Origin: Dictyostelium discoideum
Taxonomy: Eukaryota
Direction of reading: 5' to 3'
Length of the DNA: 64,000 bases
Assembly: GCA_000004695.1 (NCBI GenBank)
Contig: CM000152.2
Span: 2,656,001-2,720,000 of the forward strand
Both the position numbers and the translations under genes were made by a program. Of this stretch, positions 1 to 22,536 are shown in pieces. How positions within the stretch are numbered: position 1 is the first letter of the stretch; each line of letters starts with the position of its first letter. The notes under the pieces were generated by a model, which searched no databases, had not been told where the DNA came from, and was given only the letters and a program-made list of their open reading frames with translations.

Positions 1-13
1 TTATTATTATTTT

Positions 14-1370
14 TTAAAGTTCAATTTTAGGTTCCCAAGTTGACAGATTCCAATCTTTCACTTTTGGGTGAGCGAATTGTTGTTTATATTTTGAAGTTCT
101 GAGAATAAAATTTTGAAATGGGAAATTTGTTAAAGGAGTATCAAATAGGTATAAATGAACTGTTGATTGTGGTATTTCAGTTATTTTTTGATTAAATCCA
201 TCTAATAAAGACAAATCAGTAACACCATTTGGTATTGAACCTTTTAATAATGGTTTTTTAATTGCACCAACAAATAGATGTGTAATTGATTGTGGTAGCA
301 TACCTTCTTTTAGTTGAACATTGAATCCATCAAGTAATACCAAATATTTAACCGATGTTGGAATTGAACCTATTTTAATTGTTTTAACACTTGGTGCAAT
401 CGCTAAATGAGTAGTACCATTTGGAATGATAGAATCATTTTTATAAATAAAACATTCTTTTCCTCCAGCTTTATATAAATAATAATTTATATTAATAACT
501 TCTATTAAAACAATCTAATATTATAATTCTATTAAAATACTATAGTATTTTTTTAAAATATTTACCAATAACTCTTTTTGGATCCTTTACATTTGTAATA
601 GAGAGAGAATTGCTAATTTCAAATATTTCTTTAATTGATTCTTTAACTTGTTCACTATTATTTACAAAATTTACATTTTTATATTGATCCATTAGTTCAT
701 TGATTTTATTTTCATTTTGATTATCTTTTATTAATAGTCGTGATTGACAACAATGTTTTAATATTTCAATATGTTGATAACTATTATTATCATTAATGAT
801 TTGATCAATATTTATTTGATTTATTGTATTTTTATATTTATTTGTAATTAAATTAATATTATTTGAATAATCATGTACAATGGTTGAAATGTTTGTATTG
901 ATATCTTTATTTTCATCATAGAGTGTTACTAATTGTTTGATTTTATCAATTTCGATGATTGGTAATAATTTGGGGAGTTCTTTAAATACTTCTGTGATTG
1001 TATTTACATTTTCAGTGTGTTTATCTTCTAATGATTTAAATAAATTATTTGATTCATTTAATAACTCATTATTGATACCTATTTGTTTATCTAAATTTTG
1101 AAGGTGATTATTTTTAAATTCTTCAAAGATTTCTTTTGAATTCTCTACATCTATACGACCAAATTTATGACCATTATGATCTAAAAGAATACATTCATTA
1201 CATACTACATCCTGTTATAATTGTAATCATACAAAAATGAGTGACAATTACTTTTTATTTAAAGGGTGGAAACATGTTAAAATAATTACCTTACATGTTG
1301 CACAAATCATTTTGATTTTGTGCTCTTTATGTATTGCACATTTGTTATCATATTTACTTATACTATCCAT
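14..1370 (-). CDS. B-box zinc finger / FNIP-repeat protein, paralog 1 (3 exons, about 393 aa)
   Basis: Minus-strand ATG at 1370. Exon 1 (1290..1370) encodes MDSISKYDNKCAIHKEHKIKMICATCK, the start of a B-box Zn finger. A GTAATT donor follows. Exon 2 (566..1211) begins DVVCNECILLDHNGHKF (rest of the B-box). Exon 3 (14..468) carries FNIP repeats (GSIPxxV..LLDGFNQ..IPQS), with a TAA stop at 14..16. Introns are 1212..1289 and 469..565 with GT..AG ends. Seven paralogous copies follow downstream. Confidence 0.75.
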
Positions 1371-2211
1371 CGTGTGAAAGAATTTTTATGAAAAATTAGG
1401 GAAAAAAAAAAAATTTTGAAAAAAAAAAAAATATTATACTATTTTTTTTTTTTTTAAAAATTTAAGTCAAAATTTGAGTTGACAAAATTTAAGTCAATTA
1501 TTTTTTTATTTTTAACATATTTTTCATAAAAAAAAAAAAAATAAAATAAAAACAAGGGATAGGCATTAATTTTTTACTCTTTTTTTAAAAAAAATAAAAT
1601 TAAGTTTTCAATTAGTTTTCAAATAATTTTTATTCACTTCCCACAATCCCATTATTATTATTATATATTTGATACCTTTTTTAAAAGTAAAATATTAAAA
1701 TAATTTTTTTTTTTCAATTTTTTCAATTTTTTTTTTTTTTTTTCATTTTCATTTTAAAGTAGGCAATATAATATTAGTGAATGAATATATAAATGAATAA
1801 ATAAACGAATAAATAAATGAATAAATAAATGAATAAATAGACAAATAAACAAATAAACAATAAATAATAATTAAAAAACATCAAGTAGCTATTTCCAACA
1901 GGTTATCAAGTGGATTTATTCAATTTAGTTTAAATGGTAATTTTCTACTCATGACGGTAGTGATTGTAGAAATGGTGTTCAACAATTATCATTTGAAAAG
2001 GGTTTCTTTTTTAGAGTAGATAGTTCTTTATTTGAATTTTAAACCAAATTTAGTTAAACAATAAAATAAAATTTTTTTTTTTTTTTTCAAAACATATTTA
2101 CAAAGTTTTAGATTTATTAAAACTAGTTTTATTTTATTTATTTATTTTTTTTTTTTTTTTTTTCAATCAAGATTGTAGTTTTATTTTATTATCTTTTTTT
2201 ATTGTTTTTAG

Positions 2212-3580
2212 TTATTATTATTATTAAGATTTGATTGAGAAGGTAATCTTTTTGGTAAAATTTTAGATGGAGTTGATGGTGCAGTATTTTGATCAATTTT
2301 AGTCCAAATTTCTTTAGCAGAACCACCAGAAACTTTATTAGTTTGAGTAGTGGTGGTTGAAGAAGAAGATGATGATGTAACAATGGTTTAGCAGTTACAA
2401 CACTTTCAAGAGTTGGTAATTTTGGAGATGGTGTAGTTGATAATGTTGAATTATCAATAGTTGTGGCCAATAATGATTCTCTTGATGATTCTTTAACTAA
2501 TGATGGTACAATAATTGATACCATCATTAGTTTAAGCACCACTTATTGTACCATCACTAATAAGTTCATCATCATCCATTGGTATATTAATAATATTAAC
2601 TGGTAATGGTAATGGCGAATCTAATTGTTGTTGTTGTGGTGGTGGTGATGTTGTTGTTTTTGTTGTTGTTGAAGAAGATGAAGAAGATGAAGAAGATGAT
2701 CTTAATTGCAGTGGTTGTAGTTGATTTATTACATTCTTCAATTGGTTCCTCTGGAATTGCATGCTTCAGTTTCTTGTTTAGTTAATTCTTTAGTTGGTTT
2801 AATTTCTTGTAAAATTTGACTAGCCGTTGTTACATTATGTTGATTTAAATCTTGTGATGAAGATAAAGAATTCTCTGCATTAACTTTTGATTGTAAAATA
2901 TCAAATGGTGATAATACTTCAGGTGCTTCATCAATCGATTTTGGATGATTGTTACTATTATGTTGTTGTTGTTGTGATGATGATGATATTGATAATGATG
3001 AAGATGAAGGTGAAGATGAAGCTGATTGATGATTTTCTCTTTCTTTACCAAGGAAATCAGTTGATCAATTCAAAGAAGAATTTAATTTTGGCATCATATT
3101 GCACCGACTGATGGTTTGCGTTGAATAAAACTTGTTGATCTGGTGATGATGGTATACCCCTAATTGTTGGGGATTATCCAACTGATACACTTGTAGTAGT
3201 ATTACCACCAATATTATTACTACTAGTATTTAATGGAGTTGGAATTGGTGTTAATGCACTACTTAATGATGGTGAAGATTGAGCTGATGATATCACATTA
3301 TTATTATTATTTATTTTTTATTATTGATAACAACTGGAGTAACACTTAGAATTGTTTTGAAAGAAACCTTCACTATCTAATTTTGCTGCTTTTGTTCTTT
3401 CATCTTTTGAAATTAATACCCAATTAAGTATTTTAATTTTGGTAATTCATTAATAACAAATAATATAAACTCTTCACATTTCTTTTAAATTAAATTATTT
3501 TCAAATGATAAATATTCTGAAGTTTTAGATTTCTTTAATGTTTGTTTGATAATTTGTTGTCCTAAAATTGAAAATATGAA
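2212..3580 (-). pseudogene. Degenerate S/T/Q-rich low-complexity ORF cluster (frame-disrupted gene or pseudogene)
   Basis: Minus-strand ORFs 2189..2542 and 2532..2762 and neighbouring frames encode Ser/Thr/Gln/Pro-rich low-complexity peptide. Coding potential is spread over all three frames with several internal stops, and no clean GT-AG exon model could be built by eye. Confidence 0.3.
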
Positions 3581-3583
3581 AAA

Positions 3584-3615
<32 letters not shown>

Positions 3616-3659
3616 ATAATAATAATTAACCATTAAAATAGGAATTAATAATTAAAAAC

Positions 3660-3815
3660 AAAAAAATAATAAACTTTATTTGTTTTTTTGAAAAAAAAAA
3701 AAATTTAAGGTCAGTGAAATTAAATAAAAAAATTCAATGCTACTGTAGTGAAATTAAATAGTAAAATTCACTACGCTGGGCAGTGAAATTTTATTGAAAA
3801 TTCCCTACAACAATA
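3660..3815 (+). repeat. Solo terminal repeat of the Tdd-4-like DNA transposon (about 156 bp)
   Basis: Near-identical to 31975..32134 and the inverse of 27533..27690. It contains the subterminal palindromic motifs ggtcagtgaaatt and cactacgctactgtagtgaaatt and ends in ccctacaaca. No transposon body lies on either side. Confidence 0.7.
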
Positions 3816-4229
3816 TCTTTATTTTCATCATAGAGTGTTACTAATTGTTTGATTTTATCAATTTCAATGATTTGTAATAATTTGGAGAGTTCTTTAAATA
3901 CTTCTGTGATTGTGTTTACATTTTCAGTATGTTTATCTTCTAATGGTTTAAATAAATTAATTGATTCATTTAATAACTCAAAGATTTCTTTTGAATTCTC
4001 TACACCAATACGATCAAATTTATGGCCATTATGATCTAAAAGAATACATTCTACACATACTACTACCTATTATATTTATAATAATCATACAAAAATGAGT
4101 AAGGATCTTTTATTATTTAAAGAGGTGGATATTTGTTACGATAATTACCTTACATGTTGCACAAATCATTTTAATATCGTGCTCTTTATGTATAGCACAT
4201 TTGTTATCATATTTATTTATATTATTCAT
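3816..4229 (-). pseudogene. B-box/FNIP paralog 2: 5' fragment only, truncated at the solo transposon repeat
   Basis: It has the exon-1 B-box start (ATG at 4229), the intron, and the first ~300 nt of exon 2 with a ~60-nt internal deletion relative to paralog 1. The sequence stops abruptly at 3816, right against the ccctacaaca terminus of the repeat. Confidence 0.7.
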
Positions 4230-4365
4230 TGTGTGAGAATTATTAAGAAAAAATAATGGAAAAAAAAAAAAAATTTAGAAAAAAAAAGTTTCTGGATTTT
4301 CAATTTAAATCAAAAAAAAAAAAAAACCCAGTTGCGATTTTAAAATTATTTTATTATTTTTTAAT

Positions 4366-4401
<36 letters not shown>

Positions 4402-4726
4402 CTTAAAAATTTAGTTATTTGACTGGAATAATTTATAATCTTAAATTTTATATTGGTTTTTTTTTTTTTATTTTTTTTTTTTTATTTTTTTAAAAACTTA
4501 TTTGTGATAATTTTTTAAAAGATTTTTTTATATAAAATATTGCCTATCTTTATTCCCAAAAAAAAAAAAAATTATAAAAAAATAAATGATAAATTATTAA
4601 ATAATAAAAATAGAAATTTTGAGAAAAAAAAAAAATAAAATAAAAAAAATGGTGAAAATGACCTAATAGATTTATTTAATGATGTTTTGTTATTATTTTA
4701 TAATTCAACTTTTTTTAAAAACTCAC

Positions 4727-5510
4727 CTAAAGTTCAAGTTTAGTCTCCCAAACACCATCCCAATTATTCACATTTGGATAAGTGAGTTGTTGTTTATATT
4801 TTGTGCTTCTGTATATGGTTTTGGAATATGGGAATTTTGTTAAAGGAGTATCAAAAAGTATTAATTGATTAACTGATTGTGGTATTTCAGTTATTTCTTG
4901 ATTAAATCCATCAAATAAAAGTAAATAATAAACACCATTTGGTATTGAACCTTTTAATAATGGTTTTTTAATTGCACCAACCAATAGAGATAATTGACTG
5001 TGGTAGCATACCTTCTGTTAGTTCAACATTGAATCCATCAAGTAATAGCAAAGCTTGAACCGATGTTGGAATTGAACCTGTTTTAATTGTTTTAGTACTT
5101 GGTGCAATCGCTACATGAGTAGTACCATTTAGAACCATAGAATCCTCTTTATAAATAAAATATTCAGCTCCTCCAGCTTAAATAAAAAATTTAATATTAA
5201 TAACCTCCATTAAAACAATCTAATATCATTATAATTCTATTAAAATAAAAATGAATATTTACAAATAACTCTTTTTGGATCCTTTACATTTGTAATATAG
5301 GGAGAATAGGTAATTTCAAATATTTCTTTAATTGATTCTTTAACTTGTTCACAATTATTTACAATATTTACATTTTTATATTGATTCATTAATTCATTGA
5401 TTTTATTTTCATTTTGATTATCTTTTAATAATAATTTTGATTGAGAACAATGTTTTAATATTTCAATATGTTGATCGTTATTATTATTAATGATTTTATC
5501 AATTTTTAAT
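4727..5510 (-). pseudogene. B-box/FNIP paralog 3: 3' fragment with frameshift
   Basis: ORF 4727..4984 encodes FNIP repeats, and the upstream exon-3 and exon-2 homologs are present. The reading frame breaks around 4985..5170. The copy ends at about 5510 without a B-box exon. Confidence 0.65.
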
Positions 5511-5755
5511 TAATATTAAAATTTTTTTTTTATGGCAAGTTTCTTTTTTATTATCAGTTTGTTATAAATTCTATTATATTATAATAAAATAGTAAAATTT
5601 CTAACTTTTTTTTTCCAGTGGGTGTATATTGTCTCTTGTGAAAAAAATAAAATAAAATAAAATAAAATAAAATAAAATAAAATAAAATAAAATAAAATAA
5701 AATAAAATAAAAAATGATAAACTGGATTTATTTAATGATGTTTTTATGAATTCAC

Positions 5756-7115
5756 TTAAAATTCAATTATAGGCTCCCAACCACCACCATCCCAATTATT
5801 CACATTTGAACAGTGAGTGAGTTTTTGTTTATATTTTGGGTTTCTGTAAATGGTTTTGGAATATGGGAAATTTGTTAAAAGAGTATCGAAAAGTAATAAT
5901 TGATAAACTGATTGTGGTATTTCACTGATTGCTTGATTAAATCCATCTAATAAAAATAAACATAAAACACCATTTGGTATTGAACCTTTTAATAATGGTT
6001 TTTTAATTGCACCAACTAATAGAGATTTAATTGATTGTGGTAGCATACCTTCTGTTAGTTCAACATTGAATCCATCAAGTAATATCAAATATTGAACCGA
6101 TGTTGGAATTGAACCTATTTTAATTGTTTTAACACTTGGTGCAATCGCTACACGAACAGTACCATTTGGAATGATAGAATCATTTTTATAAATAAAATAT
6201 TCTTTTCCTCCAGCTTTATATAAATAATAATTTATATTAATAACCTCTATTAAAACAATCTAATATTATAATTCTATTAAAATACTATAGTATTTTTTTA
6301 AAATATTTACCAGTAACTCTTTTTGGATCCTTTACATTTGTAATAGAGAGAGAATTGCTAATTTCAAATATTTCTTTAATTGATTCTTTAACTTGTTTAC
6401 TATTATTTACAATATTTACATTTTTATATTGATTTATTAATTCTTTGATTTTATTTTCATTTTGATTATCTTTTATTAATAGTCGTGATTGACAACAATG
6501 TTTTAATATTTCAATATGTTGATAACTATTATTATTATTAATGATTTGATCAATATTTATATGATTTATTGTATTTTTATATTTATTTGTAATTAAATTA
6601 ATATTATTTAAATTATCATGTATAATGGTTGAAATGTTTGTATTGATATCTTTATTTTCATCATAGAGTGTTACTAATTGTTTGATTTTATCAATTTCAA
6701 TGATTGGTAATATTTTGGAGAGTTCTTTAAATACTTCTGTGATTGTATTTACATTTTCAGTATGTTTATCTTCTATTGATTTAAATAAATTATTTGATTT
6801 ATTTAATAACTCATTATTGATACCTATTTGTTTATCTAAATTTTGAAGGTGATTATTTTTAAATTCTTCAAAGATTTCTTTTGAATTCTCTACATCTATA
6901 CGACCAAATTTATGACCATTATGATCTAAAAGAATACATTCATTACATACTACATCCTGTTATAATTGTAATCATACAAAAATGAGTGACAATTACTTTT
7001 TATTTAAAGGGTGGAAACATGTTAAAATAATTACCTTACATGTTGCACAAATCATTTTGATTTTGTGCTCTTTATGTATTGCACATTTGTTATCATATTT
7101 ATTTATACTATCCAT
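5756..7115 (-). CDS. B-box zinc finger / FNIP-repeat protein, paralog 4 (3 exons, about 394 aa)
   Basis: Exon 1 7035..7115, exon 2 6311..6956, exon 3 5756..6213. The layout is the same as paralog 1: exon 2 is the identical 646 nt and exon 3 is one codon longer. Confidence 0.75.
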
Positions 7116-7712
7116 CGTGTGAAAGAATTTTTATTAAAAATTAGGGAAAAAAAAAAAATTTGAAAAAAAAAAAAAATTTGAAAATCTGATCTTATATTTT
7201 TTTATTTTTTTTTTTTTTTTTAAAAAATTTAAGTCAAAATTTGAGTTGACAAAATTTAAGTCTATTATTTTTTTATTTTTACCATATTTTTCATAAAAAA
7301 AAAAAAATAAAATAAAAACAAAGGATAGGCATTAATTTTTTACTCTTTTTTAAAAAAAAAAAATTTATTTCAAAAAAATAAAATTAAGTTTTCAAATTAT
7401 TTTTATTCACGATTTTTTTTATTTTTTTTTTTTATTCAATTTAATTTTTTATTCACTTCCACAATTCCATTATTATTATATTTGATACCTTTTTTAAAAG
7501 TAAAATAAACTTAAACAATAAATAAAATAAAATAAAATAAAAAGATAATATTAAAATAAACATAATCAAATATTAATTAACATAAAAAATTTTTTTAATG
7601 CACCACCAACTTTGGATTGAAACAAATTTTTTTAATGGAAATCCTAAATAAACTAAATTTAAATAATAAAATTTTTTAAATTTTGAACAGTCACTTTCAT
7701 TTATTTTGAATT

Positions 7713-7745
<33 letters not shown>

Positions 7746-8393
7746 CTTTCATTCATTGTTATTCAATAACAAATAATTAATTGTAAATAATTTACTTTTA
7801 TTTGAGCAAAAATCAAATGTAATTTCAAAATTCAAAATAAAATAAAAAAAAATAAATATATATTTTAATTTGTTTATTTTATTAAAATTTTTAAAAGCAG
7901 ATTTATTACTATTATTATTATTTTCACATGATTTGCGAAGTTTTTTTATTATTATTTTTATTTCCTTATTTTTATTTCCTTTTTTCCATTTCTTTTCTTT
8001 TCTTTCCTTTTCTTTCTTTTTATTTTTTATTTTTTTTATATATTTGACTTGGTTAGAAAGAACTTAAAATAAAAATTTTTAAAAATAAATAAATGCACAA
8101 AAAAAAAAAAAAGAGAAATATTAACACTTTTGTTTTTTGTTTTATAACAACACTATAAAAAAAAAATAAAAAATTAAACAAAATAAAAAAAAAATAAATA
8201 AATAAAAATAAAAATAAAAACAATTTTTAGGTTTGGGTTACCAAGATTTATTTAAATTTAAATTTAAAAAAGGAAAAAAAAAATTTTAGAAATCTGGAAA
8301 AAAAAAAAAAACTGAAACCAAATGGAAGAATTGGGAACCAATTTGCCAAAATCAAGTTTGTAGTGTTGTTATTATTATATAATTCATATTTTT

Positions 8394-9872
8394 TTAAAGT
8401 TCAATTTTAATCTCCCAATTACTAAGATCCCAATTATTCACATTTGAGTGAGAGAGTTGTTGTTTATATTTTGGGCTTCTGTAAATGTATTTGGAAAGTG
8501 GGATATTTTTGAAAGGAGTATTCAAAAGGTAGAAACTGTTAACTGATTGTGGCAATTCACTTATTTCTTGATTAAATCCATCTAATAAAAACAAATTTAA
8601 AACACCATTTGGTATTGAACCTTTTAATAATGGTTTTTTAATTGCACCTACCAATAGAGATTTAATTGATTGTGGTAGCATACCTTCTGTTAGTTCAACA
8701 TTGAATCCATCAAGTAATAGCAAATATTCAACCGATTTTGGAATTGAACCTACTTTAATTGTTTTAACACTTGGTGCAATAGCTACAAATCCACTACCAT
8801 TTGGAACGATAGAATCATCTTTATAAATAAAATACTCAATTCCTACAACTTTATAAAATAATTTAATAACCTCCATTATAACAATCTAATATTATTATAA
8901 TTGTTGTAGTGAAAATGAGCAGGTTTTTTTTTTTTACCAACAGTAGTGAAAAATTTCACCAAGTATAGCAGGGAAAAAAAAAATGTTAAATTTCCCTACA
9001 ACAATAATTCTATTAAAATAATATAGAATATTTACCAGTAACTCTTTTTGGATCCTTTACATTTGTAATAGAGGGAAAATCGCTAATTTCGAATATTTCT
9101 TTAATTGATTCTTTAACTTGTTCACTATTATTTACAATATTTACATTTTTATATTGATTCATTAGTTCATTAATTTTATTTTCATTTTGATTATCTTTTA
9201 TTAGTAGTCGTGATTGATGACAATGTTTTAATATTTCAATATGTTGATAGTTATTATTATTATAATTATTATTATTATTAATATTATTTTTATTATTATT
9301 AATGATTTGATCAATATTTATATGATTTATTGTATTTTTATATTTATTTGTAATTAAATTAATAGTATTTAAATTATCATGTACAATGGTTGAAATGTTT
9401 GTATTGATATCTTTATTTTCATCATAGAGTGTTACTAATTGTTTGATTTTATCAATTTCAATGATTGGTAATAATTTGGAGAGTTCTTTAAATTCTTCTG
9501 TGATTGTATTTACATTTTCAGTGTGTTTATCTTCTAATGATTTAAATAAATTATTTGATTTATTTAATAGCTCATTATTGATACCAATTTGTTTATCTAA
9601 ATTTTGAATGTGATTATTTTTAAATTCTTCAAAGATTTCTTTTGAATTCTCTACATCTATACGATCAAGTTTATGACCATTATGATCTAAAACAATACAT
9701 TCAACACATACTACTACCTATTAAATTTATAATAATCATATCAAAGAATCACTTTTTATTTAAAGGGGTGGATATATGTTACAATAATTACCTTACATTT
9801 TGTACAAATCAATTTAATATCATGCCCTTTATGTATTGCACATTTGTTATCATATTTATTTATACTATCCAT
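8394..9872 (-). CDS. B-box zinc finger / FNIP-repeat protein, paralog 5 (3 exons)
   Basis: ATG at 9872 (MDSINKYDNKCAIHKGHDIKLICTKCK). Exon 3 is 8394..8849 (VVGIEYFIYKDDSIVPNGS then FNIP repeats). Intron 2 is enlarged by a ~90-bp MITE-like insertion. Confidence 0.7.
8904..8993. mobile_element. MITE-like ~90-bp element derived from the Tdd-4-like transposon terminus, inside intron 2 of paralog 5
   Basis: It is absent from the equivalent intron in paralogs 1 and 4. Its termini are inverted (gttgtagtgaaaa ... tttccctacaac) and match the TGTTGTAGGG/CCCTACAACA ends of the large element. It is flanked by ataat(t) on both sides, which looks like a 5-6-bp target-site duplication. Confidence 0.55.
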
Positions 9873-11939
9873 TGTGTGAGAGAATTTTTAAGAAAATTTA
9901 AGAAAAAAAAAAAATTTGGGAAAAAAAAAAAAAAAAAAAAAAAATTAAAATAAAATAAAATCTAATTTTTTGATGTTGGAAATCTTGTTTTGTGAAAAAA
10001 AAAAAAAAGATATTATTTTTTTTTTATTTTATATTTTATTAAACTAATATTAATTTTTTATTTATTTTTGACTATTTAAATTGTTTTTATTTTTTTATTA
10101 TTTAATCATTTGATTGTTTTAATATTTTTTACGAATAATTTGACCATTATTATAGTCTATTTTGGTCTTTTATAGTATATATTTGATCATGATCGGAACC
10201 TGGGAATCCCTCAGGATGTAGTAACATTAATCTGTATGATCTAGTGCATACCTCACAATGAAATTTGACCACATGACTTTGCTTTTACAAGAATAGTATT
10301 TTTTTTTGGATTTGGTAATCAGTGGGAGTTTCAATATCAATAGAGGTAGATTCAGCAGCAATTGCACGATAAAGCACATTAGAAATAGGATGTTTTAAAA
10401 AGCCAACTGATTCAACAAGTTTATCATATCTCTTTTCCATTATTTCCTTGCATACAACTCAAAGTGAATGAATGGTTGACTATAGTGATTTTGAAATGTT
10501 TTTGGACTAATACCAAAAGTAACACATATCTCATAAATTGGAAGATATTGTTTCCATTATAAGAGAGTCTTACACAAAAAAAATAAAAAATAAATAATGT
10601 TGTTAATAATTCATTTTATTTTTTACATTTTTTATTTTTTTTTTTTTTACATTTTATTTAATTTAGGACTTGGTGTAATTTTACTAAATAATTTAATTTA
10701 ATTTAATTTAATTTAATTTATTTTAATTTTTTTTCATATAATTTAAAAAAATGAGTGGTTTTTAATGGTAATATTATTGTCTAAAAATAGATATTTTTTT
10801 TTTAAAATAATATTATTTTTTTTTTTCATTCAAATTTAGAAATTTCCGGAAAATCTTAAAAAATACGTATTTCATTTAAAAGTAAAGCTATTTTTGTTTT
10901 TTTTTCTTTAAAAAAAACATATTATTGTAAAAAAAAGATGTATTTTTGGAAAAAAAATATTATTTTAAAATTTTATAATGTTAAGGGGGTAAAAAAAAAA
11001 TTTTTACTAATTATGTTAATCGGGGTGTTAAATATTCTTTAAAAATTTTTTTTTGAAGTTGTGTTTTTTAATTAAATAAATAAATTCATAATTATTTCCT
11101 TCTATTAATAAAAAAAAAAAAAACCCAGTAAAATGTTAAAATATAATTAATTAAATCAAATTTTAATAAAAGTTTGTAATTCTATTTTATAAATAAATAA
11201 AAATTATCAAAAAATAAGATTAATAATAACAAAAAAATAAAATAAAATTTATAAAAAATGAAACTTTTTATAAAAAAAAAAATAGCATTTTTTATTAAAA
11301 TTTAATTAATACTAAAAAATATTAGAATTTTTAAATTTTATTAATTGGTGTTATTTTTTTTTTTAAAAATAATTATAATAATTATTAGAAAATAGGATAT
11401 TTTATAAAAATAAGATTATTTATAAAAAATAACCTTTATTATTATATATTAAAAAATAAGATAAATAATAATAAAAAAAAATATATTAATAATTGATACA
11501 TTAAATAATTTTTAACATATTTTATTAAAATATAATAGATCTTGTATGGAAAATCATCACTGGTGATTTAAGTAATCAATTTTTATTTTTGGAGAATAAG
11601 ATGTTTAAAAAATAATAAAATAAATTATAAATTGGAAAATTTTATAATATTCAACATATTTATTTAAAATATAAGTAATCCAACTTGGTTTTTTTTTTAT
11701 TTTTTTATTTTCTTTTTTTTTTATCCATTTTTACTATATTTTCAAACTTTTTTTTTTATTTTCAAACTTTTCATTTTTACATAAAATTTAATATAAAAAA
11801 ATATAATAAAATTAAAAAAAAATAAAATAACAAAATTTGTTTAAGGGTCATTTTTATTTTTATTGATTTTATTGATTTTATTATTTTTATTTTTATTATT
11901 TTTATTGATTTTATTATTTTTATTTTTGTCGTTTTAGAA

Positions 11940-12001
<62 letters not shown>

Positions 12002-12170
12002 TGGAATCTAATAAAATAAATTGTTGTTGTAATTGAATTAATCTTTTTGTTTGAAAAATATTAATTATAAGCAGAAAGTTAAATAATTAAGATTAATATT
12101 TAATTAGCTATATAAGATTGGAAAAAAAAAAAAAAAAAAAAAATTCGATCTAATTGATTATTATTATTTT

Positions 12171-12926
12171 TTAAAGTTCAATTTTAGGTTCCCAATTTGA
12201 CACACCATTCCAATTACTCATTTTTGGGTGAGTGAGTTGTTGTTTATATTTTGGAGTTCTGTGAATAAAATTTTGAAATGGGAAATTTGTTAAAGGAGTA
12301 TCAAATAGGAATAAATTAGCTGATTGGGGTATTTCAGTTATTTTTTGATTAAATCCATCTAATAAAAACAAATCAGTAACACCATTTGGTATTGAACCTT
12401 TTAATAATGGTTTTTTAATTGCACCAACAAATAGATATCTAATTGATTGTGGTAGCATACCTTCTTTTAATTGAACATTGAATCCATCAAGTAATATCAC
12501 ACATTTAACCGATGTTGGAATTGAACCTATTTTAACTGTTTTAACACTTGGTGCAATCGCTACATGAGTTGTACCATTTGGAATGATAGAATCATCTTTA
12601 AAAATAAGATATTCATTTCCATCAGCTTTATATAAATAATAATTTAATATTAATAAAATAATTAAAACAATCTAATATTATTATAATTTGATTAAAATAC
12701 TTAATGATATTTACAAGTAACTCTTTTTGGGTCCTTTACATTTATAATAGAGAGAATTACTAATTTCAAATATTTCTTTAATTAAATTTTTAACATGTTC
12801 ACTATTATTTACAAAATTTACTTTTTTATATTGATTCATTAATTCTTTGATTTTTTTTTCATTTTGATTATCTTTTATTAATGGTTGTAATTGACAACAA
12901 TGTTTTAATATTTCAATATGTTGATG

Positions 12927-12998
<72 letters not shown>

Positions 12999-13593
12999 AT
13001 TATTATTATTATTATTAATGATTTGATCAATATTTATTTGATTTATTGTATTTTTATATTTATTTGTAATTAAATTAAAAATATTTAAATTATCATGTAT
13101 AGTGGTTGAAATATTTGTTTTGATATCTTTATTTTCATCATAGAGTGTTACTAATTGTTTGATTTTATCAATTTCAATGATTTGTAATAATTTGAAGAGT
13201 TCTTTAAATACTTCTGTGATTGTATTTACATTTTCAGTATGTTTATCTTCTAATGGTTTAAATAAATTATTTGATTCATTTAATAACTCATTATTGATAT
13301 CAATTTGTTTATCTAAATTTTGAATATGATTTTTAAATTCTTCAAAGATTTCTTTTGAATTCTCTACACCAATACGATCAAATTTATGGCCATTATGATC
13401 TATAAGAATACATTCTACACATACTACTACCTATTATATTTATAATAATCATACAAAAATGAGTAAGGATCTTTTTTTATTTAAAGAGGTGGATATATGT
13501 TACGATTATTACCTTACATATTGCACAAATCATTTTAATATCTTGCTCTTTATGTATAGCACATTTGTTATCATATTTATTTATATTATTCAT
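12171..13593 (-). CDS. B-box zinc finger / FNIP-repeat protein, paralog 6 (3 exons) with an expanded poly-Asn tract
   Basis: ATG at 13593 and FNIP exon at 12171..12500 and upstream. Exon 2 contains an (ATT)n run of ~90 nt at 12935..13020, which reads as (AAT)n, poly-Asn, on the coding strand. The other paralogs have only ~4-8 Asn at that position. Confidence 0.7.
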
Positions 13594-14349
13594 TGTGTGA
13601 GAATTATTAAGAAAAAATAATAAAAAAAAAAAAAATTTTAGAAAAAAAAAGTTTCTAGATTTTCAATTTAAATCAAAAAAAAAAAACCCAGTTGCGATTT
13701 TAAAATTATTTTATTATTTTTTAATTATTTTTTTTTTTTTTTTTTTTTTTAAAAACTCAAAAATTTAATTATTTGACTAGAATAATTTATAATCTTAAAT
13801 TTTATTTTGAGAAATCTTGTTTTGAGAAAAAAAAAAAAATATTATTTTTTTTTATTTTTTATTTTATTAAACTAATATTAATTTTTTATTTATTTTTGAC
13901 TATTTAAATTGTTTTTATTTTTTTATTTTTTTTTAAAAATAATTGTTTTCTTTTTTCTCTTTTGGTAAAAATTAAAAAATAATAAAAAGTATAAATTATT
14001 TCCATTAATAATTTATTTTGTTTAGTTTGAAAGGTTGTCTTATTCAATGGATAAATAATTAAATTCTATTAATTTACTTTTTAGTTTATTAAAATAAAAA
14101 ATAAAAAAAAATAATATTTTTATTTTATTACAATAGTTTTATAATCATTTTTTAAAATAAACTTATTTAAAATATTTTATGTGGTGGTTTGAAAGCCTTT
14201 AATTATATATAAATCCATATTGATATTTGTTTATAATTAAAAAAATAAAAAAAAAAAAAATAATAACAGGTTGCTGAAAATGGCATAATGGATTTATTTA
14301 ATGATGTTTGTTATTATTTTATAATTCATACTAATTTTTGTAAATCTAC

Positions 14350-15723
14350 TTAAAATTCAATTTTAGGCTCCCAATAATAAGCAGTATCCCAAGTATACAC
14401 CCTTGGGTGAGTGATTTGTTGTTTATATTTTGTGCTTCTGAATATGTTTTTAGAATATGGGAATTTTGTTAAAGGAGTGTCAAAAAGTAATAATTCTTTA
14501 ACTGATTGTGGTATTTCACTTATTGCTTGATTAAATCCATCTAAAAAAAACAAATTTAAAACACCATTTGGTATTGAACTTTTTAATAATGGTTTTCTAA
14601 TTGCACCTACAAAAAGATGTGTAATTGATTGTGGTAGCATGCCTTCTGTTAGTTTAACATTGAATCCATCAAGTAATATCACACATTTAACTGATGTTGG
14701 AATTGAACCTATTTTAACTGTTTTAACACTTGGTGCAATCGCTACATGAGTTGTACCATTTGGAATGATAGAATCATCTTTATAAATAAAACATTCATTT
14801 CCACCAGCTTTATATAAATAATAATTTAATATTAATAAAATAATTAAAACAATCTAATATTATTATAATTTTATTAAAATACTTAATGATATTTACCAGT
14901 AACTCTTTTTGGGTCCTTTACATTTGTAATAGAGAGAGAATTGCTAATTTCGAATATTTCTTTAATTGATTCTTTAACTTGTTCACAATTATTTACAATA
15001 TTTACATTTTTATATTGATTTATTAATTCTTGGATTTTATTTTCATTTTGATTATCTTTTATTAACAGTCGTGATTGATAACAATGTTTTAATATTTCAA
15101 TATGTTGATAGTTATTATTATTTTTATTATTATTAATGATTTGATCAATATTTATATGATTTATTGTATTTTTATATTTATTTGTAATTAAATTAATATT
15201 ATTTAAATTATCATGTATAGTGGTTGAAATGTTTGTATTGATATCTTTATTTTCATCATAGAGTGTTACTAATTGTTTGATTTTATCAATTTCAATGATT
15301 TGTAATAATTTGGAGAGTTCTTTAAATACTTCTGTGATTGTATTTACATTTTCAGTGTGTTTATCTTCTAATGATTTAAATAAATTATTTGATTCATTTA
15401 ATAACTCATTATTGATATCAATTTGTTTATCTAAATTTTGAATGTGATTATTTTTAAATTCTTCAAAGATTGTTTTTGAATTCTCTGCATTTATAAAATC
15501 AAATCTATGACCATTATGATCTGAAACAATACATCCATCACATACTACTACCTTGAAATAATAAAAATAGAGACAATGAGAATTACTTTTTGTTTTAACA
15601 AGTGGTAAATGTTTTTAAATAATAAAAAACTATAACTACCTTACATGTTGAACAAACTAATCTAATATCAAAATCTTTATGCAATGCACATTTATTATCA
15701 TATTTATTAATTAGAGTAGTCAT
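14350..15723 (-). CDS. B-box zinc finger / FNIP-repeat protein, paralog 7 (3 exons)
   Basis: ATG at 15723 (MTTLINKYDNKCALHKDFDIRLVCSTCK). FNIP exon at 14350..14682 and upstream, with conserved intron positions. Confidence 0.7.
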
Positions 15724-15812
15724 TTGGTTTGGAAAAAATATAAATATTTAGCAATTAAAATTTTATTAATTTGTGAAATTTTCAAAAAAAAAAAAAATAA
15801 AAAAAAAATAAA

Positions 15813-15849
<37 letters not shown>

Positions 15850-15899
15850 AAATAAAAATAAAATTTTGAACCAAAAAAGGATTTAAATTCATTTTAATT

Positions 15900-15935
<36 letters not shown>

Positions 15936-16369
15936 GAATGGATTGATTCTTTTATTTCCCTACTAGAAAAAGTGATCAATTTTAATTTTTTTTTTCTTTT
16001 TTATTTAAATAATAGTAAAAAAAAAAATATATTTCCAAAATTCTAACAAATTTAAAACAATCACAAAAAAATAATAATAAGTTCACTGCAAATCTCATTA
16101 TTCCAAAAAAAATATCTTTTCAAAATAGAAAAAAAAAAAAATAAAAATCCAATTCCAGAAATTTCTGTGAAAATGAAAAAAAAAAAAAATTAGTGATTTT
16201 TTTGATTGAAAAAAAAATAATTAGTGATTTTGTATGTTGAAAAAAAAACAAAAAAAACAAAAGAAAAAAATAAAGTGAAAATAAATAAATAATTTGGCTA
16301 AAGAAAACCGTAATTTTTTTAAGATTGCATATTGTACAATTTATTATAAGTTTTTTTTTTTTTTTTTTT

Positions 16370-17661
16370 TTACATTTCAATTTGAGAGTAACCATTTGAA
16401 TTCCATAACACTTCATTAAAACCATTGAGATCTTGTTTACAAGAAGGAGTTTTATAAACTCTAACTGATTTTATTAAAGTTTGAGGGATTTTAAAAGAAG
16501 TATCACCTAAATAGATTTGAGTAACATTTGGTGGTATTTCAGAGATTTCTTGATTGAATCCATCTAATAAAAATAAAAATGAAACACTTTGTGGTATTGA
16601 TTTCTTTATCAATGGTTTTCTAATGGCACCAATATGTAACCATTGGACGGAATTTGGTAATAAACCTTCAGTTAATTGAAGATTAAAGCCATTTAATAAT
16701 GCAATTCTTTGAATAGTTGCAGGAATTGAACCAATTGTTAAATTTTTAATACTTGGTCCTAATGCTAAATAAAGTGTGCCATTTGGTATAACACAACCAT
16801 CTTTATAAATGAAATATTCACCACCACCCACTTTTTTGTTTTTTTAATTATAATTTAAAATAATTAGGAATTAGTTTTAAAGGATTTTAAAAAATTAAAA
16901 AATTAAAATAAATTAAAATATTATATTTACATTTTACTCTTTTTGGATCTTTATAAGTTGCAGAACTTAATTTAATTTTAAAAGTATCTTTAATTGAATT
17001 CTTTACAAAATCCATTGAATTTTCAATTGTAACTTTATTAAATTCATTTAATAAATCAATATTTTTATTTTCAGTATTCTTTTCTTTTACCAACATTTGA
17101 GATTGATGACAATGTTTTAATAATTCTAAATGTTGATGATTATTTCCTTTAATATTTTGATCATTATTAAAAATTTGTTGGATATTAAAATTATTAATTG
17201 TATCCTTGTATTTATTTGTAATTAAATGAGCATTCTTTGAATTATTTTCAAGTTTTTTTGAAATTTTTGAATGAGTTTCTTTATTTTCATCATAATGACT
17301 GACCAAATGTTTAATGGTATCCTTTTCAACTGAATCCAAAATTGTATGTAATTGTTTAAATTCATTGGAAATTGTATTGACATTGTGAATATGTTCCTCT
17401 TCAAGTTCATTAAAAATCTCATTTGATTTATTTAATAATTCTTTATCACCATCCAAACATTTAATTAAAAATTGAAAATTATTATTTTTAAATTCTTGAA
17501 AAATTTGATTACAATTTTCAGAGGTAATAAAATCAATTGAATGGCTACGATGATGATTTTTTGAAACAATACAATAATCACAAACTGGAACTCTACAATC
17601 ACTACAAATAAATCTATAATCATAATCATTATGTAGTGTACATTTATTATCAAATTTACCT

Positions 17662-17666
<5 letters not shown>
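16370..17666 (-). CDS. B-box zinc finger / FNIP-repeat protein, paralog 8 (diverged; B-box region not split by an intron)
   Basis: ORF 16887..17666 begins MAGKFDNKCTLHNDYDYRFICSDCRVPVCDYCIVSKNHH, a B-box read without an intron. ORF 16370..16831 carries FNIP repeats, with an intron between them at about 16832..16905. A T60 tract lies directly upstream of the ATG. Confidence 0.65.
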
Positions 17667-17715
<49 letters not shown>

Positions 17716-18731
17716 TTAAAACAATATTTTTTTTTTTTTTGTTTTTTGTTTTTTGTTGAGATGTCAGTTGTTTTGGATGATCAAAATAAAAAAAAGAAAA
17801 TAAAAAAAAAAAAAAAAAGTAAATCAATTTTTTTTTTTTTTTTAAAAAAGTAAAAAATAAAAAAAAAAAAAAAAAAAAAAAAGTTTTTAAATATATTCGA
17901 TCAGTGGATAGTTTTCACATAAAGAAGCTGTGCAACCCAACATAGAAAAAATGGGGTATTAGTTTAATTTATTTGGGCACCAAAACACTTTTTTTTTAAA
18001 AAAAAAAATAAAAACTCTGCTGAATATCAATGTGATTTTTTCTTTTTTTTTAATTTTGATTTTTTGATTTTTTTTTAATTTTTTTATTATTTTTTTTTTT
18101 TTTTTTCTGATATTCTGGAAAAACTTAAATTTCGACTTTTAAAATCATTATTAATTTCATTGCTTCCTTCTATTATTTTTTTTAATTATTTTTATTTTTA
18201 TTTTTTTTTTATAAATGTGGTTTTTAAAAAATCTCAGATTAATCTTGACGTAAGGATATTTTTTTTATTGTGTTATAGAAGTTTTTTTTTTTTTTTTTAT
18301 ATTATAATACCAACCCATATATTAATTATTCACACGTGTGCTTTGAGTTTTTAAAAATATCAAAGAATAAATTTAAATTTCTAAAGAAATTTTATTAAAA
18401 TCCCAACCTGATATTTAAAATATAAAAAAAAAAAAAAAATTTATGTAATTTCACATTAATTTTCAAAATGTGGATTATTCTACCAAATAATTTTGGCAAA
18501 ACAGACTATATTAAAAAAAATATTTTTTTTTTTTTTTTTTTTTCTCCAAGTAAATTATTAAAAACATATGATTTCAGAATATTATTTTGATTAAAAGTTT
18601 TAATAATATTAATAAGAATAATAATGATTAACAATAAAACAATAATAATTAAAATAATAATTTATTTATTTAGTTTTATATATTTTAGAGTTTTCGTTCG
18701 AAACTTTTCGTTATTTTTCGACCGAGAACTC

Positions 18732-18874
18732 TTTTTTTTTTTTTTTTTTTTTTTACCTAAAAGCGGTGTATTGTTATATTTTATTACATTTTTAAATTTT
18801 TAGATTTTTAAATTTTTAAATTTTTATATTGTTATATGTTGATATTTTTGGTTATATTATGATTACTACTACTT

Positions 18875-18948
<74 letters not shown>

Positions 18949-19442
18949 TATAATGGAATTGGGTTTGGAGTGTTCGGGTTATGCCATGATGTGTTGAAGT
19001 TGATTATTAATTGGTCTCTGTTATTTAATTTGTATATTGTTTCATTCCTTTCGATCTTCTTTATTAAAATGAATTTCTCTATTTTAATTAAGTTGGTTAG
19101 TTCTTTTTCAATTAATGTTGGATCAAATGAGGGTGGAGTTTTAGATTCGTCTTGATTGAATAGTTTGTAACAAATGATTCTCCATAGTTGATGTATAATT
19201 ATGCCGATTAAATTTGGGTAGATTCTTTCTTTTTTATTTGTTTTGCTAATATCTAGTGAATTGAGATCCCAATTTCTGATCTTGAAGAATGAGAGATTGT
19301 TGAATGTTGAAATTATTATGTTTTCTATTTCTTTTACTTGCATACAGTCTATAAAAAGGTGAGTGTATGGGTCACGGATTATATTGTTAGAGATTTTGCA
19401 TGGTACGTTCCGTTCATAGTTGATTCCAGGAAGTGACCTTTA
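18732..19442 (-). mobile_element. TRE3-like non-LTR retrotransposon, 5'-truncated 3' fragment
   Basis: Minus-strand ORF 18948..19343 looks like an ORF2 C-terminus. The 3' end carries poly(A) (poly-T on plus at 18878..18946 and 18732..18757). It is flanked by a 12-bp direct duplication gaccgagaactc at 18720..18731 and 19443..19454. It sits 96 bp downstream of the tRNA-Glu 3' end in the same orientation as the tRNA. Confidence 0.6.
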
Positions 19443-19496
19443 GACCGAGAACTCCAAAATTATAAAAACTTATTAATGAATGTAATTCATTACAAA

Positions 19497-19507
19497 GATT
19501 CGAACCT
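19497..19507 (-). promoter_or_regulatory. External B-box (exB) downstream of tRNA-Glu
   Basis: GGTTCGAATC on the minus strand, 30 bp past the tRNA 3' end. Dictyostelium tRNA genes commonly carry an extra B-box downstream. Confidence 0.5.
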
Positions 19508-19536
19508 GCGACTTTTGGTCTCCCTGATTAAAAAGC

Positions 19537-19608
19537 TCCCCATTCGGGAATCGAACCCGAGGTACCAGTGTGAAAGACTAGAGTGTTACCGACTACACCA
19601 ATGAGGAT
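19537..19608 (-). tRNA. tRNA-Glu (anticodon UUC)
   Basis: The reverse complement TCCTCATTGGTGTAGTCGGTAACACTCTAGTCTTTCACACTGGTACCTCGGGTTCGATTCCCGAATGGGGAG folds as a cloverleaf: 7-bp acceptor stem with one G-U, anticodon loop CTTTCAC, T-loop GGTTCGATTCC. Confidence 0.85.
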
Positions 19609-19655
19609 TTGGTTTGAATTTTGATTTTTTTATATAATAAAATTTCACGTTTTTT

Positions 19656-19719
19656 GGAAAAAAACAAACAACAACAACAATCTCTTTTTTTGATTATTTC
19701 ATTTTTCATATAAAAAAGA

Positions 19720-19754
<35 letters not shown>

Positions 19755-21460
19755 GGAACCAAGTTAATTAGAAAATTTCCAGATTTTTAACTTTTTAAAG
19801 AAAAATAAAAAAGATAGAAAGAAAATAAAATGAAAATCACAAACAACACCACAAATATTAAGCAACACAAATGCCTACAAAAAATAAGCGAAATTGTGGA
19901 TAAAACTCAATTAAAAAAAAAACAATTCAAATACGTCATAAACATCAATCACGAACCAGACGATAAAATAAAAAAAGATTTAGAAAAAAGTTTGGACAAA
20001 AAAGATGTTTTAATCAAAAGTAATAATACATTCAAAATTCTCACAGACAGTATTAGTACAGTAATCTATTTTGTAAATATGTTTGATGCAGAATTAAAAG
20101 GACAATTTATAACCACTATAAGACCAAAAAATATGTATACAGATTTTGATTGGTATAAATCACTCACAGAAATAGAATGGGTAATAGAAAATGAAGGATG
20201 TAAACTAATTAAATCAGAAATTAAAGGCGAAACTCTAATTATCAAAACAGTGAAAAGAGTCGTAGAAGAATTTGACACTATCATTGAACTAGACAATCTA
20301 ACATTAATTGGACACTCCAACAAAGGATGGAGAGATCAAACCTCATTACCAGAAAATCAAGAAGAAAACAAAAATAAAAAACAATCAGATGAACAACAAC
20401 CACAATCTACATCAGAACAAATACCAAAACAAGGAAAAAGAACAATCATTATCCCACCAATCACATCCTCATCTAATGATAAAACATTTATGGCCCTAGA
20501 TGATACAGCTCAAAAGGTAATAGAAGCATCACTAGAAAACGTAGATGAACTAACAAGAATAGAGAATGAGATCAATACACAATCGATAAACAATCAAGAA
20601 ATTAAAACAAAATCAGAAAAACCTATCGAACCACCATCTCCATACAATACACCAATAAAACAACACGGCGAAACAAAGGGACTAACAACGGAAGAAAAAC
20701 TTAGAGAGGCAAATGATATCTTCGACTTCACCAGCCCAAACACTGATGCAATAAGAAAAATAGAATTCCCACTTTCAATCCCTTCAAATCAATGGTTCTT
20801 CTCCTCTCCAATAAAACATATCATGAGTTTCAGCCCAACCTATGGTACACCATCGAAAATTATCGATTCACCAAGTAAATTGTTAAACACACCAAAAAAG
20901 AAACAACAAGACAAAACAAACAAGACCAACAAAACACCAGTCAAACCAAAATTGGGTGAATATGGACAAAAAAGCATAAAAACAAAAATGGATGAAGATA
21001 TAGACAACTTCAACAAGGAAATTCTAAAACAAATCAATAAATCAAAAAACCCCACAAACACACAAGACCAACAACACAACGAACAAAGTAAAGATCAGTT
21101 AGAAGACAAAATAAACCAGAAACTTCAAAAGGTAGATAAAAATCTACCCCAAATAAAACTATAAAGAAAAACACAATAAGAATAGGTGTTTGGAACGTCC
21201 AAGGATCCAACACCATCCAATCTGCCAGCATAATAAACACCGTTTTAGACAACAACAAGCTGGACGCAGCACTTCTAACTGAAACAAATATAAAAACAAA
21301 TAAAATTTACTCAATAAATCAACAATATAAAAACAAAATAACACACCACGCACCAATTGATAAAACAGGACAAGGGGTGTCACAAATCATCATCAACACC
21401 CGCAATAGAACTTCCTAAACATCTCAAAAAATACAATAATTCACTCAGTACTTTCTATAA

Positions 21461-21520
<60 letters not shown>

Positions 21521-21843: not shown

Positions 21844-22077
21844 AAATTTCACGTTTTTTCGAATTAAATAAATTATAAAATTTCAAAATTTTTTCCAGAT
21901 TTTTTAATATTCAATTTTTCCCCATTGGAATCATTAAAAATAATGAAAAATATGTATTATTAAACGAAAATGTAACATTTTAAATGTATATTTGTTTAAA
22001 TAAAAAAATTATTTCGGTTCAAAAAAAAAAAAAAAAATTAAAAATAAAAAAAAAAAAAAAAGTCGTTCGTTTTTTAA

Positions 22078-22218: not shown

Positions 22219-22501
22219 ATGGAATCTGAAAATAAAAATAATAATAAAAAAGTTAAAGAAGAATCTAAAGTTAAAGTTAAATTTATAACTAATGATGCAA
22301 ATATTAGAGTTACAGATACACCAATTGCTGTACCAGTTCGTTTAGGTCGTCTTGGTTTATCAGAAGTAATTCATCATTTAAGAGAAGAAGAAAACGAAAC
22401 ATCAAAACCATTCGATTTCCTTATTAATGGTAAATTTATTAGAACAACTTTAGATAAACATATTAAAAATGCAAATTTAAGTGAAGTAAGTTATAATTAT
22501 T

Positions 22502-22536
<35 letters not shown>

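Follow-up and report, generated by a model that had tools for sequence, protein, structure and literature searches.

The autophagy regulator gene areA of Dictyostelium discoideum heads a tandem array of TRIM-like paralogs whose predicted leucine-rich-repeat face diversifies

Introduction

Why does Dictyostelium discoideum carry on chromosome 3 a dense head-to-tail array of genes that join a B-box zinc finger to FNIP repeats, and what might their products do? The array opens the stretch of DNA analyzed here, 64,000 nucleotides (nt) of strain AX4 (GenBank assembly GCA_000004695.1, contig CM000152.2, positions 2,656,001 to 2,720,000 of the forward strand), which we call the window; its G+C content is about 20% and its proteins match those of D. 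discoideum AX4 exactly. An initial annotation, made from the letters of the DNA, described eight paralogs, but it missed that one member has a published function: the protein of copy H is exactly XP_641480.1/Q54W55, the product of DDB_G0279871, which is Autophagy regulator A (AreA). The array is annotated in the reference but largely uncharacterized. What is new is that it is headed by a characterized autophagy regulator, that the family is TRIM-like with a leucine-rich repeat (LRR), and that the residues diversifying among the paralogs occupy an LRR face that shows no variation in the founder.

AreA (residues 1-398) is a yeast two-hybrid partner of Atg101 in the Atg1/ULK complex, an interaction confirmed by pull-down, and its knockout raises autophagic flux with a mild phenotype, which identifies AreA as a negative regulator of autophagy (Mesquita et al. 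2015, PMC4554924). The protein is cytosolic, abundant in vegetative cells, and drops within 4 h of starvation; it was treated as a lone novel protein, and neither paralogs nor a tandem array were mentioned (PMC4554924). A domain reported for AreA in 2015, DUF4559, is not recovered with current Pfam at E ≤ 0.1. Literature searches with the paralog gene identifiers returned nothing besides the AreA paper, and the main text of a ten-genome study from 2025 mentions neither FNIP nor B-box.

Extent and integrity of the array

Stop-to-stop reading frames, MAFFT alignment of the units and tblastn, together with splice models built from the sequence, delimit eight homologous units between window positions 14 and 17666, all on the minus strand (tblastn E from 1e-28 to 1e-158) and labeled A to H from low to high coordinate, so that paralog 8 of the initial annotation is copy H (Table 1). 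The earlier count of eight minus-strand copies within 17.7 kb therefore stands for homologous units, but only five of them are intact genes (A, D, E, G, and H), one is doubtful (F), and two are fragments (B and C). Nor does each copy have three exons, as had been stated: B retains exon 1 and part of exon 2, C begins in the middle of exon 2, and H has two exons. The intron positions described as conserved in copies 1, 4, 5, 6, and 7 are indeed so, with aligned GT..AG introns in A, D, E, F, and G. In all five, a first exon of 27 or 28 codons ends in TGTAAG before the GTA of a phase-0 intron 74-88 nt long. Exon 2 then measures about 650-720 nt, the phase-1 intron that follows it 89-187 nt, and the FNIP exon about 455 nt. 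A B-box exon of exactly 27 codons, the length first given for all copies, is found in A, B, D, E, and F, but G has 28 codons, and C and H differ.

The damaged units are damaged in different ways. Copy B has a 57-nt in-frame deletion in exon 2 and ends at 3814 in a sequence resembling a long terminal repeat (LTR), and copy C has a frameshifting 2-nt deletion in its FNIP exon, near position 4985. In copy F, a 2-nt deletion lies 25 nt before the canonical donor of exon 2, and use of that donor gives a broken frame; an upstream GT donor at 12740 restores the frame and yields a predicted protein of 408 amino acids (aa) without the 'ITNVKDPKRV' segment. Copy F is identical, deletion included, in a second assembly, GCA_054883475.1, where the NCBI product also has 408 aa; a sequencing error is therefore an unlikely source of this frameshift, though the two assemblies come from the same laboratory lineage. 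Overlooked frameshifts, which had been named as a possible sign of pseudogenization, thus exist in C and, with the canonical donor, in F, but A, D, E, G, and H are intact. Intron 2 of copy E, 187 nt long, contains an insert of roughly 110 nt resembling an LTR end (8895-9004).

Assembly GCA_054883475.1 agrees with window positions 1-17136 at 99.85% identity and has the same eight units, differing by five single-nucleotide polymorphisms and two homopolymer indels over 17 kb, a closeness that places it in the laboratory lineage of the window strain; from its near identity to AX4, it is probably the AX2-214 genome of the 2025 study. Because the same eight units recur there, the array is genuine and not an assembly artefact, and the suspicion that it might collapse in an independent assembly is effectively answered. 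The copies differ from each other by 4-11% at the nucleotide level, and their spacers are distinct. The edge of the window in fact cuts the array: GCA_054883475.1 adds two intact copies and at least three fragments beyond the window start, in the order fragment, copy I (DDB_G0279897, 393 aa, intact), fragment, copy J (DDB_G0279891, 395 aa, intact), fragment, and then integrase and reverse-transcriptase open reading frames (ORFs).

Exact-sequence look-ups tie H, G, E, and A to the gene identifiers listed in Table 1, and ACTFIT_010740, on a 6.43-Mb contig of GCA_054883475.1, matches copy D at 100% identity. Some AX4 reference models are apparently in error. Those of DDB_G0279899 and DDB_G0279897 (373 aa) begin at an internal Met, so that exon 1, and with it half of the B-box, is missing, and that of DDB_G0279879 (488 aa) wrongly splices copy D onto pseudogene fragment C. 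Several reference gene models are thus corrected by the present analysis.

Table 1. Array units and neighboring features (window positions unless stated otherwise)
Feature	Position	Strand	Structure	Product or status
Array continuation left of window position 1	L002 5279-6007, 7926-9282, 9494-9671, 10001-11342, 14505-14790			copies I and J and three fragments
Copy A (DDB_G0279899)	14..1370	-	exons 1370-1290, 1211-566, 468-14	393 aa, intact
LTR-like terminal repeat	3563..3813	-	starts TGTTGTAGGGAATTTT	stands in place of the 3' half of copy B
Copy B	3814..4229	-	exon 1 (4229-4149), intron 1, first part of exon 2	pseudogene fragment
Copy C	4730..5509	-	begins mid exon 2; intron 2 retained	pseudogene fragment
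Copy D (DDB_G0279879 locus)	5756..7115	-	exons 7115-7035, 6956-6311, 6213-5756	394 aa, intact
Copy E (DDB_G0279877)	8394..9872	-	exons 9872-9792, 9717-9036, 8848-8394	405 aa, intact
Copy F	12171..13593	-	exons 13593-13513, 13430-12715 (or to 12740, alternative donor), 12625-12171	
Copy G (DDB_G0279873)	14350..15723	-	exons 15723-15640, 15551-14897, 14807-14350	398 aa, intact; exact AX4 protein match
Copy H = areA (DDB_G0279871)	16370..17666	-	exons 17666-16931, 16830-16370	398 aa, intact
NLE gene	22219-23731			
Ty3/gypsy-type pol ORF	32175-35897		reverse transcriptase, RNase H, integrase, chromodomain	1240 aa

Diversification of the LRR face and tail

The tails of the proteins had been said to diverge far more than the B-box. 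The three tail sequences quoted in support were all located (in A, C, and G), and the tail is indeed the more divergent of the two, but the B-box is not the conserved reference; that role falls to the coiled coil. By Nei-Gojobori (NG86) counting among the seven close AX4 copies, nonsynonymous (dN) and synonymous (dS) divergence are 0.129 and 0.171 in the B-box (dN/dS 0.75), 0.046 and 0.068 in the coiled coil (0.67, with the lowest dN and dS of all regions), 0.116 and 0.111 in the FNIP region (1.04), and 0.233 and 0.229 in the tail (1.02). The threefold range of dS among regions means that they have differing histories and fits gene conversion that homogenizes the middle of the gene, as the lowest dS, that of the coiled coil, points to.

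Where within the FNIP region do the differences lie? An entropy profile of 19 subfamily members has sharp peaks at x2, x3, and x5 of units with the form "(I/L)Pxx-L1-x2-x3-L4-x5-L6", in which x3-L4-x5-L6 corresponds to the predicted strand of each LRR unit. The 15 face codons (x2, x3, and x5 in five units) were chosen in advance from the LRR consensus. Among the paralogs, dN is 0.57 at these codons versus 0.054 in the other 88 FNIP codons, with dN/dS of 2.1-2.4 versus 0.63-0.66, and none of 5000 random 15-codon sets reaches the dN of the face. Parsimony on a neighbor-joining (NJ) tree counts 132 nonsynonymous and 14 synonymous changes at the face codons (omega 2.2, binomial P 0.001), as against 78 and 37 in the rest of the domain (omega 0.66); the difference between the two sets (Fisher p about 1e-5) holds with a tree from the other half of the gene, and with a mutation spectrum derived from introns the face reaches omega 2.4 (P 5e-4). 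The suggestion of diversifying selection on the repeat surface, made in the initial annotation, can thus be sharpened to the x2, x3, and x5 codons, at omega about 2.2-2.4 and P about 0.001.

For the tail of the paralogs, omega is 1.3-1.4 (P 0.06-0.08). Between copy G, which is the paralog next to areA, and its positional counterparts in two other strains, dN in the B-box is 0.01-0.02, and the tails of these same positional alleles differ by 20-29 nonsynonymous versus 0-2 synonymous changes. The orthologs of areA itself, from seven genomes, have an overall dN/dS of 0.10, with dN of 0 at the 15 face codons and an omega of 0.02 in the tail. These counts indicate that the predicted LRR face and the tail diversify under positive selection in the paralogs, and that the same residues are frozen in areA orthologs.

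This pattern resembles that of known diversifying LRR arrays, namely plant NLR/R-gene clusters and the variable lymphocyte receptors (VLRs) of lampreys, which share hypervariable exposed x residues of the xxLxLxx strand, birth-and-death evolution, recombination between paralogs, and presence/absence variation between strains. The array has the corresponding features (omega 2.2-2.4 versus 0.6 by counting methods, a chimeric copy, and copy-number variation), although its descent is unrelated, and its products are putative B-box/coiled-coil adaptors without NB-ARC or TIR.

A TRIM-like architecture without a RING

The proteins of the array are RING-less and TRIM-like, consisting of a two-zinc B-box2, a long coiled coil, a five-unit FNIP-type LRR, and a short tail, but they are not members of the TRIM family. 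Pfam recovers zf-B_box (PF00643) in A, G, and H at 34.2-34.7 bits against a gathering cut-off of 24.1, and FNIP (PF05725) at 31-60 bits against a cut-off of 21. The zinc-ligand pattern C-x2-H-x7-8-C-x2-C-x4-C-x2-C-x4-H-x2-H is present, and its ligands (C11, H14, C23, C26, C31, C34, H39, and H42) show either no variation or at least 90% conservation across 30 family members and are found in every window copy that has the B-box region. No RING was hit in Pfam; the proteins begin 8-10 residues before the B-box, and only an A-rich leader lies upstream of the ATG.

An AlphaFold2 model of copy D (mean predicted local distance difference test score, pLDDT, 86.9) comprises the B-box, a 105-residue helix (49-153), fold-back helices (162-221), LRR strands at 263-266, 284-287, 306-309, 327-330, and 347-350, and a short beta-rich tail, with neither a signal peptide nor a transmembrane segment in the model. 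When this model was compared with the PDB by Foldseek, the tripartite motif of KAP1/TRIM28 came out on top (about 230 aligned columns, E about 1e-3), followed by isolated B-box2 domains from TRIMs (TM 0.7-0.8) and by IpaH/SspH effectors with their short LRRs. A family profile searched against solved structures matched Crov588 (E 1.3e-53, in eight stretches) and Crov539 (E 9e-7), and also the B-boxes of TRIM28, TRIM3 (B-box/coiled-coil region), MID1, and MuRF1. The order of a B-box followed by a long coiled coil with fold-back helices is that of TRIM/RBCC proteins, here as a predicted fold and with marginal E-values.

Shared with TRIM/RBCC proteins such as TRIM28/KAP1 are a B-box2 with CHC(C/D)C2H2 ligands, the long helix with fold-back helices, and a variable C-terminal recognition domain. 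Sequence similarity, in contrast, extends no further than the B-box and the beginning of the coiled coil, an LRR takes the place of a C-terminal SPRY, NHL, or similar domain, and the RING is absent, so the array proteins are without an intrinsic E3 module. Among TRIMs, some scaffold ULK1/Beclin1 and some form tandem clusters shaped by positive selection (background cited in PMC5758549); in function, the closest TRIMs are the 'precision autophagy' receptor-regulators and the fast-evolving clusters of the TRIM5/TRIM22 type. A single true TRIM, which is TRIM37-like, is attributed to D. discoideum (PMC5758549).

The other half of the protein belongs with the FNIP/FGxxFN class of LRRs known from the crystal structures of Crov588 and Crov539 (PMC9525666), with which it shares the repeat family, units of about 22 residues, the L-x-x-L-x-(F/L) strand, and the (D)GFN motif. 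LRR units 2 and 4 read VxxLxLLDGFNxxLxEG(M)LP, and units 1, 3, and 5 are degenerate and lack FN; set against the FNIP consensus LxxLxFGxxFNQxIxENVLPxx, alternate units have VGAIKKPL in place of FGxxFN. Unlike the Crov proteins, those of the array have five units only, alternate ones being degenerate, and are fused to a B-box and coiled coil; their concave face is hypervariable, whereas Crov-type FNIP LRRs have a His/Tyr ladder or an Ile patch. The loop that joins the long helix to the fold-back helices contains a poly-Asn tract, whose length ranges from about 4 to about 55 residues across copies and strains (for example, at about 12900-13030 in copy F and at L006 7890-9408); the hairpin end of the coiled coil seems to tolerate it.

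AreA and its paralogs have in common the order of B-box, coiled coil, and FNIP-LRR as well as the phase-1 intron, and the proteins are 46-50% identical in amino-acid sequence. The paralogs differ from AreA in an extra B-box intron, a hypervariable LRR face, and a copy number that varies between strains.

Turnover of the array between strains and species

How old and how stable is this arrangement? In every genome examined, the order is a Cob_adeno_trans gene, an NLE-WD40 gene, areA, and the array, which areA always heads. One-to-one orthologs of areA with at least 90% amino-acid identity are found in D. discoideum strains, D. cf. discoideum, D. citrinum, D. dimigraforme, and D. firmibasis, and between strains of the D. 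discoideum complex the gene is 96.4-98.1% identical. The number of paralogs downstream of areA is far from constant: two in D. firmibasis, one plus another of a different subtype in a D. citrinum strain, at least three to four in D. dimigraforme, three to seven in three other strains of the D. discoideum complex (some truncated or internally duplicated), and seven, counting F, plus at least five fragments in AX4. Over the D. discoideum strains as a whole, the count runs from three to about nine. Birth-and-death evolution, as first proposed, is borne out by this difference in copy content between D. discoideum strains and between species, and by the fragments.

In an NJ tree with 200 bootstraps, a subfamily with 100% support holds all window copies A-G, and its sister clade (90% support) consists of areA and intron-poor subtypes; within the expanded subfamily, copies group by species. 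A profile search, limited by its word index, found the family in group-4 Dictyostelium only, including about eight members in D. purpureum, and the same limited search found no B-box plus FNIP architecture outside that group.

Copies have also exchanged sequence. Copy A is a recombinant, which over its first ~1090 nt agrees with copy I at 91 of 98 informative sites and over its last ~270 nt agrees with copy F at 34 of 38 (91:7 versus 4:34, Fisher p about 1e-20), and for most copies the best-matching partner changes with the region of the gene. Between strains, matches of the FNIP region do not exceed 94% for any copy, as against 96-98% for areA between the same strains. The array turns over by duplication, deletion, retroelement insertion, and recombination or gene conversion between paralogs.

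Gain of the B-box intron

The initial annotation held that paralog 8 had lost the B-box intron, by retroposition or gene conversion. The polarity is the reverse. Exact exon mapping in seven genomes places the phase-1 intron before the FNIP exon, between DPKRVx and xGG, in every member mapped, including D. purpureum, and copy H has it at this family-wide position with a length of 100 nt. The phase-0 B-box intron, between TCK and VVVC, is restricted to the expanded subfamily; it is absent from copy H, all areA orthologs, other intron-poor subfamilies, and the mapped D. purpureum homolog. Since this intron is confined to one monophyletic subfamily, a single gain is the parsimonious reading, and loss would need at least two events. 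Retroposition or intron loss in copy H is ruled out by the exon mapping together with the family tree: a processed retrocopy would have lost all introns, and copy H retains its phase-1 intron and is therefore not a retrocopy.

What the paralogs may do

The best explanation of these observations, in which we place moderate confidence, is that this is the areA locus with a lineage-specific, strain-variable array of paralogs encoding dimeric variable-ligand adaptors for autophagy control. Behind the conserved single-copy founder areA lies a lineage-specific head-to-tail array of its duplicates, whose proteins may dimerize through the coiled coil as TRIMs do. The conserved half of the paralogs would engage shared machinery, with the Atg1 complex or AreA itself as the most plausible docking partner, and the variable LRR face would recognize differing, fast-changing proteins, for which pathogens, symbionts, or mobile elements are the most plausible sources. 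The frozen LRR surface of AreA may bind a fixed partner, plausibly Atg101. By homology with AreA, the paralogs could then act as adaptors of variable specificity on the Atg1 complex, with putative binding to Atg101, and ligand recognition would be coupled to autophagy control in the manner of the mammalian TRIM receptors of 'precision autophagy'. In function, the nearest analogy is with those mammalian TRIMs that scaffold ULK1/Beclin1 and use variable C-terminal domains to recognize cargo (PMC5758549).

A more specific form of this proposal is speculative and, taken as one joint claim, unlikely: the array could be an amoebal repertoire for innate immunity or genome defense against intracellular bacteria, endosymbionts, giant viruses, or retroelements, acting via Atg101, in which recognition leads to local control of Atg1/ULK (xenophagy or 'precision autophagy') and which is polymorphic between wild strains.

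Several points weigh against the adaptor explanation. Literature searches found neither expression nor protein data for the paralogs, and binding to Atg101 is known for full-length AreA only, from a single two-hybrid clone and a pull-down (PMC4554924), so it is homology that connects the paralogs to autophagy. The match to TRIMs in Foldseek has marginal E-values (about 1e-3), dimerization by the coiled coil is an analogy with TRIM coiled coils, and the predicted exposure of x2, x3, and x5 follows from the strand register and the alternation rule of LRRs. The omega values come from counting methods (NG86 and parsimony) applied to 15 recombining sequences, and because omega is high for the whole gene (about 0.85) and for the framework (0.6-0.8), part of the selection signal could be relaxed constraint.

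The last point leads to the main alternative, which we consider unlikely: that the paralogs are redundant duplicates drifting under relaxed constraint in an unstable, retroelement-rich region, with surface residues the least constrained. The two fragments and the one frameshifted copy among the eight units, the pieces of retroelement within the array, the mild areA knockout, and the high whole-gene and framework values just given would all be expected under this scenario. Neutral drift, however, yields an omega of at most 1, and the 15 preselected face codons, at 2.2-2.4 (P 0.0005-0.001), exceed this ceiling while adjacent framework codons stay at 0.35-0.66. Moreover, long ORFs and all zinc ligands are retained in most copies, in several strains and species.

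An improbable alternative to both is that the paralogs are modulators or decoys of AreA, which heterodimerize with it through the coiled coil and tune its inhibition of Atg101 with no foreign ligands involved; in that case, an arms race against pathogen effectors directed at AreA or Atg101 could lie behind the diversification. It accords with the coiled coil being the most conserved and homogenized region (dN 0.046, dS 0.068), with coiled-coil motifs common to AreA and the paralogs, and with the dimerization of the TRIM-type coiled coils that Foldseek matched. By itself, however, it does not account for the contrast between a frozen LRR face in AreA and a hypervariable one in the paralogs.

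Social or kin recognition, as by the polymorphic tgrB1/tgrC1 on the same chromosome, would account for the high divergence and copy-number variation between strains, and D. discoideum does have known hypervariable recognition loci (PMC12745789). The copy D model, however, has neither signal peptide nor transmembrane segment, and AreA is cytosolic, vegetative, and falling at the onset of development. Allorecognition needs cell-surface molecules, and we regard this possibility as very improbable. Finally, that misassembly inflated a smaller family, conceivable for a dense repeat in a very AT-rich genome, has next to no probability given the 99.85% match over 17.1 kb with the same eight units in GCA_054883475.1, copies that stand 4-11% apart with distinct spacers, and comparable arrays in six other genomes.

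Mobile elements and neighboring sequence

The LTR-like repeat that truncates copy B, a derivative of which is the insert of about 110 nt in intron 2 of copy E, shares about 79% identity with a pair of inverted repeat arms, at 27533-27774 and 31894-32135. This 242-nt inverted pair flanks about 4.1 kb and adjoins the Ty3/gypsy-type pol ORF (Table 1).

Between the NLE gene and areA, the spacer region (18601-21879) holds a minus-strand tRNA-Glu(UUC) at 19535-19607, the sole match of an Rfam scan. The spacer measures 1.8 kb in another strain, and AX4 has two insertions there: one about 48 bp upstream of the tRNA, with an ORF at 19830-21164, and one about 90 bp downstream of it, with an ORF at 18951-19439. 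Such distances from tRNA genes are typical of the tRNA-targeted TRE5 and TRE3 retrotransposons, and the insertions may be elements of this kind; neither of the two ORFs has a match in Pfam.

Two spacers within the array contain coding-like sequence. Between B and A, a Ser/Thr/Gln-rich stretch on the minus strand (2200-3560), unique in the window, is broken over three frames; NCBI joins it to fragment B as a 404-aa 'gene' in GCA_054883475.1, and its broken ORFs have no family match in Pfam. In the E-F spacer, a relic at about 10140-10560 has raised G+C at 10262-10459, a part that is 97% identical, in inverted orientation, to a segment of the A-I spacer just outside the window (L002 5040-5238); the relic has neither a Pfam nor an Rfam match. 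Outside the present array, at about 48300-49000 on the minus strand, lies a further FNIP-repeat coding region with about 36-43% identity to the LRRs of D and H over roughly 80-100 residues and no B-box match.

Implications

The place of areA at the head of a fast-evolving family raises redundancy or competition among paralogs as an explanation for its mild knockout phenotype. It also points to the concave LRR face and the tail, frozen in AreA and diversifying in the paralogs, as the probable, predicted ligand-binding surface. If the array does prove to be a defense repertoire, it would be a convergent counterpart, in a protist, of TRIM5-type and NLR-type receptor clusters. To our knowledge, only one TRIM and no NLR-like diversifying receptors have so far been discussed in Dictyostelium. 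A standard model of cell-autonomous defense thereby gains a candidate family of polymorphic intracellular receptors tied to autophagy.

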